Shown piece by piece: positions 48,301 through 57,300 of a stretch of DNA of 64,000 bases; position 1 is the first letter of the stretch, and every line of letters starts with the position of its first letter. A program made the position numbers. Location of the stretch: assembly GCF_045037415.1 (NCBI RefSeq), contig NZ_CP173438.1. One strand, 5' to 3'. This DNA comes from Escherichia coli. Lineage in GTDB: Bacteria > Pseudomonadota > Gammaproteobacteria > Enterobacterales > Enterobacteriaceae.

Positions 48301-51300
48301 GCTCGATCAGGCTGAAAGTCTGGCAGGAAGATAATCGGTTGCACGTCGAAGTGGCTGACAGCGGCCCTGGACTAACTGAAGATATGCGAACTCATCTTTT
48401 CCGGCGGGCATCAGTGTTATGTCATGAACCGTCAGAAGAGCCCCGGGGAGGACTGGGATTGCTGATTGTACGCAGGATGCTGGTACTACACGGTGGTGAT
48501 ATCAGGTTGACTGATTCAACGACTGGAGCCTGCTTTCGTTTTTTTCTTCCATTATAACATCAGGCGGCATATTTTGGGGTGGTTATGTGTATCTGCCTTT
48601 GTAAAAGGGATACAAGTTCTGTAGTGGAGCACAAAATCAGGACACCGGGATAACCTGTTTCCACTTTTCTTCATGTAAGCAAGGCGGTAAACCATCGTTG
48701 TTCGTGTGAGGTCGATAAACGTTATAATATAACAACCATTAATCCACTGGTTTATATCGCGTACCGCATGGCTAAAATCACCATAACCACCTTTCGGAAG
48801 CCATTCACTTTTCAGGCTGCGAAAGACTCTTTCCATCGGCGAATTATCCAGGCCATTCCCTCTGCAACTCATACTTTGCATTACCCCATAACGCCAGAGT
48901 AACTTTCTGTATTTATTGCTTTTATACTGAACACCTTGATCTGAATGAAACAGCAGGCGGCCATCACGCGGTCGAGTTTCCAGTCCGTTACGCAAAGCCC
49001 TACACACCAACTCAGCATCAGCGGTTAATGAGAGGGCTGAACCGATAATCCGCCGTGAATATAAATCAACAACGAGCGCGAGCTAACACCATTTGTCCTG
49101 CAGGCGAATAAAACTGATGTCGCCGCACCAGACGCAGTTTGGTGCGGCGGGGTGAAATTGCCGGTTCAGTAAATTTGGCAATGGCGGACTTTTGTCTTCG
49201 TTTACCCGGTTGTGATGTTTAACCGGCTGTCGACTTGTCAGCCCTCATTCCCGCATCAGTCGTCATGCCAGCCACCGGCCTGCATCAACGCCACTCTGGC
49301 GCAACATCTGACTGATTGCCCGGCTACCCGGCTGCGCCACGACTGAGAGCATGGAAAGCCCTCACCCGGCTTCGTAATTCAATTCTTTGCACATTAACAG
49401 GACGCTTCACCTGCGCGTAATAAACGCTACGGTTAATACCGAATAAATGACAAATAACCCACACTGGCCACTTTGCTTTCAGCTGTGTGATTAGCGCGAC
49501 AGCTTCCCGGGGATTTCGCTCATCAGCACGGCAGCCTGCTTTAGTATTTCTTTTTCCATCTCAACGCGCTTTATCTGCGCTTTAAGCTGCTGAATTTCGC
49601 GTTGTTCAGGGGTAATAGCATTACCAGCTGGCTCAATACCCTGAAGTTCCTGCTTATACAACCGTATCCATTTACGCAAATGGTCAGGGTTGAGCTCGAG
49701 TGCCTGCGCGACTTCTCTGACATCACGCTGGTATTTAACCACCACCTGCTCGAAAGCTTCAAGCTTGAACTCCGGGGAAAAGGTACGTTTAGTCCGACGA
49801 GTTTTGATCATGCATCACCTCATTTTCACTGTTTTAACATTAACAGGATTTCGAGGTGTCCTGAATTACCGATCCACTACAAAGTACGACAGGTACTGTG
49901 GAGGTACTCCCGTAAAGACGGCCATCAAGCTCCCGCTCCGACATACCTGCGGGCAGAGGCCATGAAAAGCCAGCTTTGCGAAAGCGCACGAACATACCAC
50001 AAGCTGTTGATTTTGGTACGCCCAGGCGACGCCCGACCACAACCTGGGGTAAATGTTCTTCAAAGTGAAGACGTAAAGCTTCAGTGATCCAAGTCCGGTG
50101 TTTCATACGATAGTGTCCATTAAAAATGATGGACATTATTTTTGTAAAACCGGAGGAAACAGACCAGACGGTTTAAATGAGCCGGTTACATGTAATCCAT
50201 ACTCATCCAAGGTTTAATTCTGACACAATAAGAAAATATGGAAAGTCTCGCTCTAGAGATGGGGAGAGGGATATTGAAGTGTATGATATTCCAAGAACTG
50301 CCGGAGATATCCTCGTAAATGGATTTTCCAGTGCAAACTGATAACAAATTCGAAGTCATTATCTGCAACAAGATTGATTGATGTAGGGGATATGTTAGAG
50401 CATTATAATGCTCAAGGATTTGGCGTGATGACATCTGCGCCAATTGATGCGACACTATATGATAAACTGGATGCTATTTGCAGTAAGTGTAAAATAGAAC
50501 AAATAAATTTTTCAGTATTAGAGTCAGAACGCGCACTATATTATGACGATATATTAAGATGCCGTTACTTTGGTAAATAACATAAAATTAATCAATATGG
50601 TAATATATCAGTTGTAATTGATCGAAACAAAGCACATAAATGCCATCTTAGAAAGATGGTGTTTTTTAAGCATATAAAATATATTTTCTATAAGATATAG
50701 GGCAAACTAAATTTCTTGACTTCTATGATGGACTAACTAGATATACATGCCGCCAGTTTTTATAAAACGACGGCATATATAATCATTTATATATCTTTTG
50801 ATTTTATTCGTAACCACTCATGTTGATCTAAACCTATTCTTGACAGATTAGCAACAATATCAGTTGTTATTTTTTGCGCGTACGTTGTTTTTATTTCCCC
50901 GATCCATTTCAATACTTTTGGAGTAGATATTTTTTCAACGAGTAAAGGAACGAATGAGATATAGTCAGTATTAACTAGATTGTTCTTTTTCCCTATGATG
51001 ACACCGTTTCCATTTTCGACTCCAAATGAAAATGAAATAATATTAGAAGCTTTTGCCGGCATTTTAATTTTATAAAAACCGCCATATTCATCTTCGATTA
51101 ACAAATTGTAATTATTATCGTCCAGTGTTCCCCTGAGGAATAAAAAATCGGCTTTTTCATGCAATCTGACGCTATCACATAATGGTTGTATGCATAGATA
51201 GACAAAATTATATGCATCTAAAAGTAAAGTTCCTTGTTTTAAGGACACATTATCTATATGAGAATGATATCTTAAACTCCTGCGCGTGATTTCCAGAGAG

Positions 51301-54300: not shown

Positions 54301-57300
54301 CTCCTTCAGAGGGGCCCACAACTCCATGGGTAAGCGTGAATCACGAAGCCGACCATGAATATACGCTAATTTTATTTTAAATGGACCGCATTGGGTTAAT
54401 TGATTATTATTTTTCCAAGTCACGACATGATGAATTGGCTCTTCACCATAAACAGAAACAGTTCCACTGAATTGACCAAATTCATTGAACCATCCTTCAA
54501 TGTGGTGATCTGCAAGATTGAATTCTTGCGGTGTAAAAAAAATTGATTCGCTAATTCTGTCAATGCACTCACCATCTTCCAGATAGTCTCTAAAACGAGC
54601 TATAATAGGAGGGTTTGAATCACTGTACATTGTGTTTGTAAAACCTAATAAAGCTTTTTCTAAGCGAGAAGACTGCTCTGATGTTTTATTGCTATCGCTC
54701 GTGGAAATGTCATCTATTAATATTTCTTCGGTAGGCATTATTATGAAGTGAGTTCCATGCCCATCTCCAGATAGTCTTAGCCCACCTAATTTTTTTTCCC
54801 ATAGAATAGGATCAAATTCAAAAGATGATAATTGTGTATTTATTTGTGATACTTTTGATTTTGATATTTTGTGTGATAAAGAGTCTAAATTATTTCTTGC
54901 TTGCTCAATCATCTCATCAAGAGTTTTTTTAGTGAAGCATTCGTCGTTGATAATAGTTCTAATTGGTATTTCTATATCATCAAGATCAAGTGATGGTATA
55001 GCAAATAAACTCCAATTAACAAATGCAGCAACTAATGGCTTAAGCTCATTGTCTCTTTTGGCCCTAGTAAGAACCAGCACCTGTGGTCCAATTGCTGCGA
55101 TAGATAAACGGCCTATTCCTTTCTCTCCCATGATAGGGCGAAAGGCTTTATTACTATCCACTGCTGGTTTATTAATTGCATCATCGTCGATTAATTTGCT
55201 GGAGGTTCCAATAGTCAACCACCTCTCTTCAAATTCATCGGTTGTCATACCTAATCCATCATCTCTCAAGATAAGAAGATTTTCTTTCCTAAAAAAATCA
55301 ACTTCGACATTATCAGCATAGGCATCATGAGCATTTTTAAATAACTCACTCAAGGCAGTAGGTATACCTGCAATTTGTTGTCTGCCAAGCATGTCCAAAG
55401 CTCGAGCCTTTGTTCTTATTTTAGCCATATATCTATGAATCCTTATTAGTACAATTTTCTATGAGATGTAGCCCAAATAGTCTAGCGAGTTCGCAAGGTA
55501 CAGCATTGCCGATTTGCTTTGCCATTGAATTCAGCGAACCTTTAAAAACATAGCTTAAAGGAAATGTTTGTAATCTTGATGCTTCTCTTATGCTAATTGC
55601 TCTATGTTGAGTGGGGTCAGGATGCCCAAAACGACCATTGGAGTAACTATTACATTTCGTCGTAAGTGTAGGCGCAGGCTTATCCCAACTCATTCTTCCA
55701 TAAGTATCTGTGTGGCCATCATAATTTTTATGGCATTTATTAACTAACTCTTCTGGCCAATTTCTTCTATCCCCTCCTTCTGGAGTGTGCATAATTCTTT
55801 TTAGGTTAAGAGGGCTCAGTGTTCCAGCCCTATGTAAAGGATCTTTGGGGTCGGTTTCTCCTGAACATAACTTTGTGAAGTCCTGGATATAATCTCGTAC
55901 AGTTTTGAATGGGATTTTATTTTTACCATGGGTTATCTCTGGTAGGGTAACTTTACCTACTCGACTAGCTAAGAGCACGAGTCTTTTTCTTCTTTGGGGA
56001 ATCCCATAGTTCTCAGCATTGGCTATAAAAGATATATAGTTATACTCTAACTCTTTAAGTAGCTTAATAAACTCCTGAAATGGGCCTTCTTTTTCTTCAT
56101 CAATTTTTTGCATTCCAGGAACATTTTCAAGCATAATATATTCAGGAAGAAGTTCTCTAATAAAACGATGAGTTTCATTTAGTAGATTTCTCCTTGAGTC
56201 GTCACTAGTTTTATTTTTATTCTGTTGCGAAAATGGTTGACATGGTGCACATGCACTCAGTAACAAAGGCCGTTTAGCTTTAATATCAATGATGTCGGAG
56301 ATATCTTGAGGTTCGATTTTCCTAATATCATCTTGGATGAATTTTGCATCAGGGAAATTAGCTTTAAATGTTTCTGATGCTTGTTGGTCAATATCTAATC
56401 CAAGCTCGATATCAAAGCCAGCCTGACGTAGCCCTTCACTGGCTCCACCACAGCCACAAAAAAAATCTATAACTATCAATTTGATACCTTCTTTGAACTA
56501 AATAAAACAACTCGAATAAGTTGATATTTTAAATAAAAATAATTGGTATGGATATGAACTTTGGTCACGCTACCGCCCTGAGGTCATGGCCATCCCCAGA
56601 CCTTTTAAAGGGATTATGAACAACACCCAGCCGACGTTCAACGGTGTTACCCATACATATCACAAAGTTAGTTAATTGGTTGGTCGTAAATTGACCTAAA
56701 ATGATTGAGGGCAATGCAAAAATCATTGGGAAATCAGGCGACACAGATGTTCGGAAGAGACTGAATGTTAAAAATATAGAATGTATATTCTCAAAAAAGA
56801 GATATTTCATTACATTTTATATGTGTATAGGAAAGTGAGATTGGCGAATCACCTCCCAATCATCCCGCCAGCGCTCCATTCAGCGCCACGCCAACCCTCA
56901 CTCCAGCCCACGTCATCGCCCCCAGCCAGAATGTCGGCAACACCAGAAACATCAACCTCATCACCAGATTGATAATCACGTCATCCTGCGTATTCTGGAT
57001 CCCGGCTAAATTCCTGCTACTGTGGGTATCGCTGTTGTAGAGCACATCCAGCAGCCAGCTATCAAGCCACCGTGCCAGTTCCCACCAAAAGGTGAGGAAA
57101 AATAGTGCAAACTGCACAAACGTCAGCGTCATCACTACTTTCACATCCCACGCCGAACAGAGCGTTATCAGCGGAATACAGATCACCAGCGCTATTTGCA
57201 GCTGCGCCTGTACCATCGGTAGTGCCTAACGCACGCTGTCGAATGCCGTACATGCCGCTATGCTGCCGAGGATATTTCTAGCGCCGGATGCCAACCGGGT

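Follow-up and report, generated by a model that had tools for sequence, protein, structure and literature searches.

An intact HEF_HK/Response_reg_2 cassette with a C5 methyltransferase and an ops leader in a uropathogenic Escherichia coli island: a candidate phosphorelay-gated immune or addiction module

The 64,000-nt stretch of Escherichia coli DNA analysed here (contig NZ_CP173438.1 of assembly GCF_045037415.1; hereafter the window), which comes from a pathogenicity island of uropathogenic E. coli (UPEC) with hlyCABD, cnf1 and cdiBAI, carries on its minus strand an intact copy of the HEF_HK/Response_reg_2 cassette, a unit of three genes that is horizontally mobile. The cassette encodes, one behind the other, a C5 DNA cytosine methyltransferase, a 986-aa protein that joins a MORC-like GHKL ATPase to a histidine-kinase core, and a 555-aa receiver protein with a C-terminus of toxin-like predicted fold. 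Judged from its sequence, the cassette almost certainly belongs to the published HEF_HK/Response_reg_2 family, while the chance that it operates as an immune or addiction module guided by methylation and gated by a phosphorelay appears about even.

A three-gene cassette of a published family

The three minus-strand open reading frames (ORFs) lie at 55433–56479 (348 aa), 52468–55428 (986 aa) and 50787–52454 (555 aa), with 4 nt between the methylase and the 986-aa gene and 13 nt between the latter and the 555-aa gene. Since they are long in DNA of 34% GC and have full-length homologues at E = 0, the ORFs did not arise by chance. The GC content of the cassette is 33.9% (0.23–0.27 at third codon positions, GC3) versus 44.6% for the whole window and 47–57% for the immediate flanks. 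The tight packing and the foreign, AT-rich composition reported in a preliminary description of this DNA were thus borne out, all motifs quoted there were present in the translations, and its domain assignments held as well: a complete C5 methylase (TIGR00675), a protein with a MORC-like GHKL domain, a helical linker and a histidine-kinase transmitter, and a receiver domain at the N-terminus of the last product.

Ten loci of relatives were compared, namely those of Alteromonas, Dickeya, Acinetobacter, Undibacterium, a metagenome contig, Enterobacter hormaechei and Pantoea, a second E. coli allele, and two contigs sharing a common 569-aa receiver protein (named Salmonella enterica by their source). 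The order methylase, approximately 1000-aa kinase-like protein, approximately 550-aa receiver protein was found in 10/10 of them, and no other neighbour was conserved among these loci. HNH, AbiC, type I HsdR and toxin–antitoxin genes as well as integrases occur nearby in relatives, and a Vsr gene follows the cassette in Acinetobacter. DNA homology among the three closest cassettes extends from about 200 nt upstream of the methylase to the last stop codon, and because it begins and ends there despite differing flanks, the cassette was delimited in the window to the region from approximately 56690 to 50787. The cassette region was found in 196 of the 5,426 complete E. coli genomes, with at least 99% identity in 195, and strain 4/0 is among many with 100% identity over the 6.4-kb region. 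A search of 72,556 plasmid records gave one weak hit (Phocaeicola), and the search for phage carriage gave none.

Systems of this kind have been published. The HEF_HK (PF19191)/Response_reg_2 (PF19192) pair was defined as a two-component-like module by Bellieny-Rabelo, Pretorius & Moleleki (2021; Genome Biol Evol; PMC8011034), who found the two families linked in 91.6% over 644 regions, E. coli genomes being in the set. They described C5 methylases upstream and an enrichment of restriction–modification (R-M) genes nearby, proposed a paraMORC origin, reported that Pectobacterium homologues are induced in planta, and suggested a signalling function controlling R-M systems. The window shows their group 1 architecture, HATPase_c_3, HEF_HK and HATPase_c in that order in a soluble protein, with an adjacent Response_reg_2 gene that has no other Pfam domain and lies 13 nt away. 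The methylase gene is 4 nt upstream, a frequent but not obligatory arrangement in that study, and no essential difference between the published module and the window cassette was apparent. The exact 555-aa protein, WP_016238529.1, is moreover listed by DefensePredictor as a "Predicted novel defense gene" with a log-odds of 13.9 (Science 2026; PMC13092281, Table S10). Hence, the preliminary description erred in calling the system undescribed: with the kind in print and the protein itself already marked as a candidate for defence, the finding is not new. Both the family and its defence-likeness having already appeared as predictions, novelty is to be sought in the mechanism and its experimental proof rather than in the discovery of the locus. 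The 2021 study contains neither the minimal three-gene cassette, the C-terminal fold, the methylase orthology and the ops leader described below, nor a functional experiment, and in the literature library searched no experimental characterisation of the family was found beyond the papers cited here.

The methylase, the kinase-like protein and the receiver protein

The first gene (55433–56479, minus strand; WP_000635307.1) starts with TTG and encodes a C5 DNA cytosine methyltransferase of 348 aa, with the catalytic Cys80 in the PCQ motif. It matched TIGR00675 dcm at 2e-48 with 165.7 bits, above the curated cutoff of 100.65, and contains the motifs FxGxG, P79-C80-Q81, E118-N119-V120, QRR and GNAVP. 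Matches to the PADLOC MTase_II/DruM-like models ranged from 1e-88 to 2e-95, methylase models of the Druantia (DruM) and DISARM (DrmMII) types were among those hit in PADLOC, and M.HaeIII, M.HhaI and DNMT1 were found in the PDB. For residues 251–341, in the C-terminal third, the best PDB matches were eukaryotic DNMT1 (E about 1e-24), ranking before bacterial M.HaeIII and M.HhaI, whose alignments fall in the N-terminal half. In a comparison of nine cassettes the methylases proved orthologous (mean identity 59%), their variable region being conserved to a mean of 57% and a minimum of 45%. Because the orthology includes the variable region, the comparison suggests one fixed specificity across the family, unlike the diversification seen in classical R-M systems. 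Since the methylase does not diversify across cassettes, a search for co-variation with its variable region, made to find the DNA-reading subunit, was uninformative.

The product of the second gene (52468–55428, minus strand; WP_001063091.1) is a soluble hybrid protein of 986 aa composed of five parts. Residues 1–130 (55039–55428) constitute a paraMORC-type GHKL ATPase whose catalytic motifs (E28, N32, D35, D56-G58-G60 and G101-G106) are invariant in 36 homologues, and with 79% in the nine cassettes this is the best-conserved segment of the whole cassette. Residues 24–130 matched Pfam HATPase_c_3 at 2.5e-11, and residues 9–126 aligned at 4.6e-20 with the N-terminal part of NF050001, the NCBIfam model of BbrUII/HgiDII restriction enzymes. 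Membership in the BbrUII/HgiDII group itself was rejected, as the match reached 71.7 bits versus a cutoff of 550 and covered 112 of 659 profile positions, at the N-terminus only.

The ATPase is followed by a strongly conserved middle region (residues 131–480, 53989–55038), for which no fold match was obtained. It is about 60% identical on average, even across distant taxa, and contains many invariant polar residues, for example D307-H308, D402, E407, R410 and the stretch E440-K441-A-G-R-E-G-F. Residues 125–485 gave no match in Pfam or PDB profiles, even at E 10, and the S5 domain that follows the GHKL domain in paraMORCs was not confirmed by sequence in these searches. The middle region could act as an S5-like transducer, a DNA-binding module or both, and DNA recognition or a hidden catalytic activity, if present, would most likely reside here. 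Next comes a helical or coiled-coil linker (residues 481–760, 53149–53988), which is poorly conserved (mean identity 36%), consists to 71% of E, K, D, R, Q, L, N and I with 1 Pro and 3 Gly, and whose matches were limited to apolipoprotein-type helical repeats.

The C-terminal part has the organisation of a histidine kinase. Residues 771–836 (52921–53118) form a DHp domain of the HEF_HK type (PF19191 at 1.5e-25, model positions 2–67 of 67), in which His780 of the H-E-F motif is the candidate phospho-acceptor; H780-E781-F782 is invariant in the 36 homologues. The kinase catalytic (CA) GHKL domain at residues 883–981 (52486–52782) matched PF02518 HATPase_c at 5e-10, and its N box (N889/D892/N893), G1 box (G922-P923-G924) and G2 box (G944/G946/G948) are likewise invariant. 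With a profile of the 36 homologues, the C-terminal 230 residues aligned with solved histidine kinases over both DHp and CA (E 4e-17). The H-box has no T/N residue, a residue that has been tied to phosphatase activity (preprint 10.64898/2026.02.27.708494), so this H-box would suit a one-way trigger.

The third gene (50787–52454, minus strand; WP_016238529.1) codes for the 555-aa protein, which is built from a receiver, a helical bundle and a β-rich domain. The receiver (residues 18–208, 51831–52403) matched Response_reg_2 (PF19192) at 4.1e-29 over residues 18–198 and shows a (βα)5 fold with the acidic pair (D26-D27), the phospho-acceptor Asp (D125), the Thr/Ser position (T161) and the Lys (K208); D26, D125 and K208 are invariant in homologues down to 24% identity. 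Residues 209–325 (51480–51830; LTAGLLSNA...LDxAYLSH) are helical in both models and show 54% mean identity across cassettes, with D258 invariant and H264 nearly so. Pfam scans detected no helix-turn-helix (HTH) or other output domain in this protein, which is the fastest-evolving member of the cassette in the nine-cassette comparison.

No match to the C-terminus of the 555-aa protein was found in Pfam (searched with the single sequence and with 18 members), NCBIfam or PADLOC. Called unrecognised in the preliminary description, it can be described from a structural model (pLDDT 74), in which the bundle at 209–325 is followed by a variable stretch, a β-rich part from about residue 391 and two C-terminal helices. 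The β-rich domain, residues 391–555 with the stop codon (50787–51284), is a defined effector candidate of about 165 residues, and searches of two structure libraries placed the predicted model nearest to the toxins MazF, Kid and CcdB. No PemK or CcdB hit to the C-terminus was found in Pfam even at E 10, and hhalign against sequences of MazF/Kid/EndoA and CcdB gave a probability below 1%. Because neither method gave a sequence-level signal, the toxin likeness is taken as a resemblance of predicted fold, of moderate strength. The domain further differs from MazF/PemK/Kid and CcdB in its conserved residues, the CxQPxCDxxR signature (C421-x-Q423-P424-x-C426-D427-x-x-R430) with W517, in being covalently joined to a receiver and a helical bundle, and in the lack of an antitoxin gene in the cassette. 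The C-terminal helix is conserved as well (R539..G541..E546-W547-x-R549). A PD-(D/E)xK nuclease reading of D427...E520-x-K522 was weakened, as E520 and K522 are less than 90% conserved in the broad alignment and the fold neighbours are not nucleases.

A profile search with the C-terminus retrieved at least 1,548 clusters at 50% identity. Among the best 150 of these, examined at full length, all carry the C-terminal module behind an N-terminus of about 200 residues, so that the module is a constant component of the family. On the same ground, the identical architecture of these best 150 hits, an exchangeable effector of the Detocs kind was rejected.

Detocs (DtcA/DtcB/DtcC; Rousset et al., 2023), in which a His–Asp relay drives a defence effector and the outcome is abortive infection, is the system that invites comparison. 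There, too, a cytoplasmic kinase phosphorylates a receiver fused to an effector that does not bind DNA, and both the phospho-His and the phospho-Asp are required. However, Detocs uses a TPR sensor, its effectors are exchangeable (a PNP ATP-nucleosidase or others), and it includes a buffer receiver but no methylase, whereas the cassette has a paraMORC GHKL sensor, a family-fixed effector module and a methylase in the operon. Having no stand-alone receiver gene and no PNP domain, and a methylase as first gene, the cassette is not a Detocs system, and the relation is one of functional analogy. ParaMORC GHKL proteins are known partners of methylases and nucleases in R-M operons (Iyer, Abhiman & Aravind, 2008; PMC2292703), and a GHKL–Shedu fusion, VcSduA of Vibrio cholerae, is a validated defence protein. 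The cassette resembles the MORC/paraMORC group in its intact GHKL motifs, the homology to the BbrUII/HgiDII N-terminus, the link to a C5 methylase and sometimes to Vsr, and its sporadic, laterally mobile occurrence. The group's GHKL domains, however, work with or are fused to a nuclease or helicase, while that of the cassette shares a polypeptide with a histidine-kinase core and has a receiver protein as its partner, no nuclease or helicase being detected. A cognate methyltransferase is shared with type II R-M systems of the BbrUII/HgiDII type. With BREX, DISARM and Druantia the cassette has in common a dedicated methylase, scoring well on DruM and DrmMII, beside large ATP-using proteins, but the signature genes of these systems are absent and the two large cassette proteins match none of their PADLOC models. 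Assignment to a named defence system was rejected, in agreement with the preliminary description: the PADLOC library (2023) gave no match at the system level, its hits being methylase models and one REase_II match that covers 105 residues of the GHKL domain in the 986-aa protein, while the 555-aa protein had none.

The ops leader and the island position

The cassette is preceded by a leader of about 200 nt (56480–56690, minus strand), which contains a promoter-like site, TTGAAC-17-CATAAT, at 56641–56613 and, downstream of it, an ops element, the recruitment site of RfaH. The ops site that had been announced in the preliminary description is indeed present: GGCGGTAGCGTG at 56566–56577 agrees in 12/12 positions with the 12-nt ops sequence GGCGGTAGnnTG and stands in the 5′ leader on the coding, non-template strand, 86 nt ahead of the methylase start codon. 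The leader is approximately 90% conserved upstream of the methylase in Enterobacter hormaechei (locus L012, 5690–5990) and Pantoea (locus L013, 5690–5990), with the ops element in an identical position in both, while the sequence further upstream diverges among E. coli, Enterobacter and Pantoea. No ops was found upstream of the methylase in more distant relatives. Since the element is conserved in three genera with different flanks, the view that it is an accident of the E. coli island was rejected for the enterobacterial subclade, in which, given the conservation there and the absence in distant relatives, ops belongs to the cassette.

RfaH counter-silences H-NS-bound, AT-rich UPEC operons through ops sites in their leaders, and the counter-silenced set includes a transcription unit that holds, by gene order, the Qat system (PMC9765446). 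By its leader sequence, expression of the operon in E. coli, Enterobacter and Pantoea probably depends on RfaH acting at ops. With the conserved leader, a defence-like operon would join the ops/RfaH targets, a small set that otherwise serves mostly envelope and virulence functions. Two further ops-like sites, each with one mismatch, were seen on the minus strand of the window. The site at 44026–44037 (GGCGGTAGCATG) is upstream of hlyCABD and is probably the known hly ops. The other, at 16510–16521 (GGCGGTAGCGGG), is inside overlapping minus-strand ORFs, in a stretch with annotated genes for fimbrial usher and fimbrial proteins; being mismatched and within a coding sequence, it is probably due to chance.

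The surroundings of the cassette consist of insertion sequence (IS) and pseudogene debris (IS3, IS66, TraG-N and VasL remnants). Past the IS3/IS66 debris, an OmpR-type response regulator and sensor kinase pair is encoded at 46362–48557 (plus strand) and 48552–50455; it is unrelated to the kinase-like and receiver proteins of the cassette and is not kept beside it elsewhere. The UPEC strain CFT073 (NC_004431.1; locus L014, 26884–34102) shares the island backbone with window positions 56400–58201, its VasL-domain remnant being 91% identical to 57723–58201. At the island position occupied by the cassette in the window, CFT073 has the QatABCD anti-phage system. The cryptic RfaH-bound unit c4518–c4511, whose products are called a ShlB-family protein, an ImpA-like protein and uncharacterised proteins (PMC9765446), runs by gene order from a cdiB/POTRA remnant and a leader ops (L014, 34091–34102) through Qat. 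Because this unit extends from an ops leader through Qat, RfaH appears to read into a defence system in CFT073, and the island position behaves as a slot for defence cargo.

Proposed mechanism and alternative explanations

The preliminary description suggested that a self-marking methylase might be coupled to an ATP-driven phosphorelay gating some effector, and all the findings made here would agree with this idea. From the domain content, the following sequence of events can be proposed. The C5 methylase would mark the host DNA at one conserved motif. A dimer of the 986-aa protein, by means of its GHKL ATPase and the 350-aa middle region, would engage DNA and report that it is unmarked. ATP-driven closure of the N-terminal domains would then be transmitted through the linker of about 280 aa to the DHp/CA core, leading to autophosphorylation of His780, from which the phosphoryl group would pass to Asp125 of the 555-aa protein. 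This phosphorylation might free or activate the helical bundle together with the MazF/CcdB-fold module, which would in turn attack nucleic acid, or an enzyme acting on it, and so stop growth or replication. An immune or addiction role for the cassette is, in our estimate, slightly favoured, and the mechanism in its entirety stands at about an even chance, but a toxin-like action of the effector, taken by itself, is rather doubtful. The more specific version, an R-M-like immunity of a new mechanistic type in which a MORC-type clamp senses unmarked DNA and signals from His to Asp to a receiver-tethered effector of MazF/CcdB fold, a single conserved methylase specificity being the self mark and the operon being counter-silenced by RfaH in enterobacteria, can be put forward only tentatively.

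Several observations weigh against the proposed mechanism. DNA binding by the 986-aa protein is itself a proposal, its middle region having no fold match, and no nuclease or other catalytic domain was found by sequence in the 986-aa and 555-aa proteins with Pfam, NCBIfam, PADLOC or PDB profiles. The equivalent of the loop with the catalytic Arg of MazF reads as short and variable in the sequence of the 555-aa protein. In the only published experiment on relatives, two related units from the ECOR collection, 2CM2 (WP_000886597.1 + WP_000236931.1) and 2CMP, were cloned into MG1655 and scored defensive = FALSE against phage (PMC13092281, Table S6). Both list the kinase-like and the receiver gene (607 aa for the receiver protein in the tested alleles) and no methylase, and no report of toxicity was found for them. 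Because constructs with no listed methylase gave no reported toxicity, a simple model in which unmethylated DNA triggers the toxin sits awkwardly with the data. On phage protection, the authors point out that systems left without validation might require different phages or hosts, or boundaries drawn anew (PMC13092281). Furthermore, in one relative (locus L008, 6993–9996) the kinase-like gene is broken into ORFs of 791 aa and 228 aa, and in the second E. coli allele (L011, 11003–12717) the receiver gene is truncated, being called at only 456 aa behind a gap of 344 nt. Recurrent inactivation of this kind would fit a costly or toxic system. A split ATP-binding protein was also noted in the 2CMP unit.

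Among the alternatives, the strongest, which we nevertheless regard as unlikely, is a true restriction enzyme licensed by the phosphorelay, with a cryptic nuclease in the middle region of the 986-aa protein or the C-terminus of the 555-aa protein and a methylase that protects the host. The methylase comes first in a tight operon as in R-M systems, paraMORCs partner nucleases in R-M operons and the VcSduA GHKL–nuclease fusion is validated, Vsr lies downstream in Acinetobacter, and conserved acidic and basic residues that could serve a nuclease are available in both proteins (D307-H308, D402, E407 and R410; D427, R430, E520 and K522). The homology of the GHKL N-terminus to the BbrUII/HgiDII type II enzymes and the PADLOC REase_II match point the same way, but the former is confined to 112/659 positions and 71.7 bits versus 550, none of the four profile collections identified a nuclease family, E520 and K522 are not invariant in the wider family, and the structural neighbours of the β-domain are MazF/CcdB toxins rather than nuclease folds. 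Kinase and receiver constructs with no listed methylase could, moreover, be cloned and plated in MG1655. The same components and logic as in the proposed mechanism would also serve a selfish addiction module that stabilises the island: upon loss of the cassette or the methylase, methylation would fade, the kinase would fire, and the receiver protein would kill or arrest the cell. Addiction-like behaviour is known from R-M systems (a point discussed in PMC8011034), the MazF/CcdB-like fold of the effector candidate is typical of plasmid-maintenance toxins, the compact cassette moves between unrelated islands, and related constructs gave no phage protection. Yet the cassette is nearly absent from plasmids, where addiction modules thrive (1 weak hit in 72,556 records), and broken kinase or receiver copies persist; were the methylase the sole safeguard, breaks would be expected mainly after activation of the toxin. 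We therefore consider this alternative improbable.

No more probable is a two-component system with a regulatory instead of an immune role, whose cytoplasmic kinase senses nucleotide levels or the state of DNA and phosphorylates a regulator; through its C-terminal module the latter would bind DNA or a partner protein and so control the methylase, neighbouring R-M genes or other genes. This is the reading given in PMC8011034, with which the in planta induction of the Pectobacterium homologues, the intact histidine-kinase and receiver residues and the lack of phage protection by related constructs would agree. What it leaves unexplained is the lack of a detectable HTH or other output domain in the 555-aa protein and the fact that the cassette travels alone, in unrelated contexts, with no conserved target genes nearby; an H-box lacking the phosphatase-linked T/N residue suits a trigger rather than a homeostatic regulator, and the strict coupling to one orthologous methylase, with the very high defence-likeness score, fits an immune or selfish module better. 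Finally, the cassette could be silent cargo, H-NS-silenced AT-rich DNA carried with the pathogenicity island and of no current function. It does have 34% GC and lies among IS and pseudogene debris, and its near-identical copies in 195 genomes may reflect clonal spread; however, three long ORFs have stayed unbroken although stop codons readily appear in DNA this rich in AT, no catalytic residue has been lost, and three genera share the conserved leader, including its promoter-like site and the exact ops, which makes this explanation very improbable.

Considering the methylation-guided phosphorelay module again as the preferred reading, methylase and ops leader are both part of the functional unit, whereas the published test constructs listed no methylase. 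The claim of discovery carries little weight, and interest lies in how the family functions and by what mechanism; the family is large and widespread, counting at least 1,548 clusters at 50% identity in bacteria and in some archaea. The cassette sits in UPEC islands beside the genes for hemolysin, CNF1 and contact-dependent inhibition (CDI), and its effector candidate is delimited to a single domain with the CxQPxCDxxR signature. If the proposed mechanism is true, the cassette would represent a second, independent two-component phosphorelay immune circuit after Detocs, the first one tied to epigenetic self-marking, and would provide a bacterial model for MORC-type ATPases that read the methylation state of DNA.

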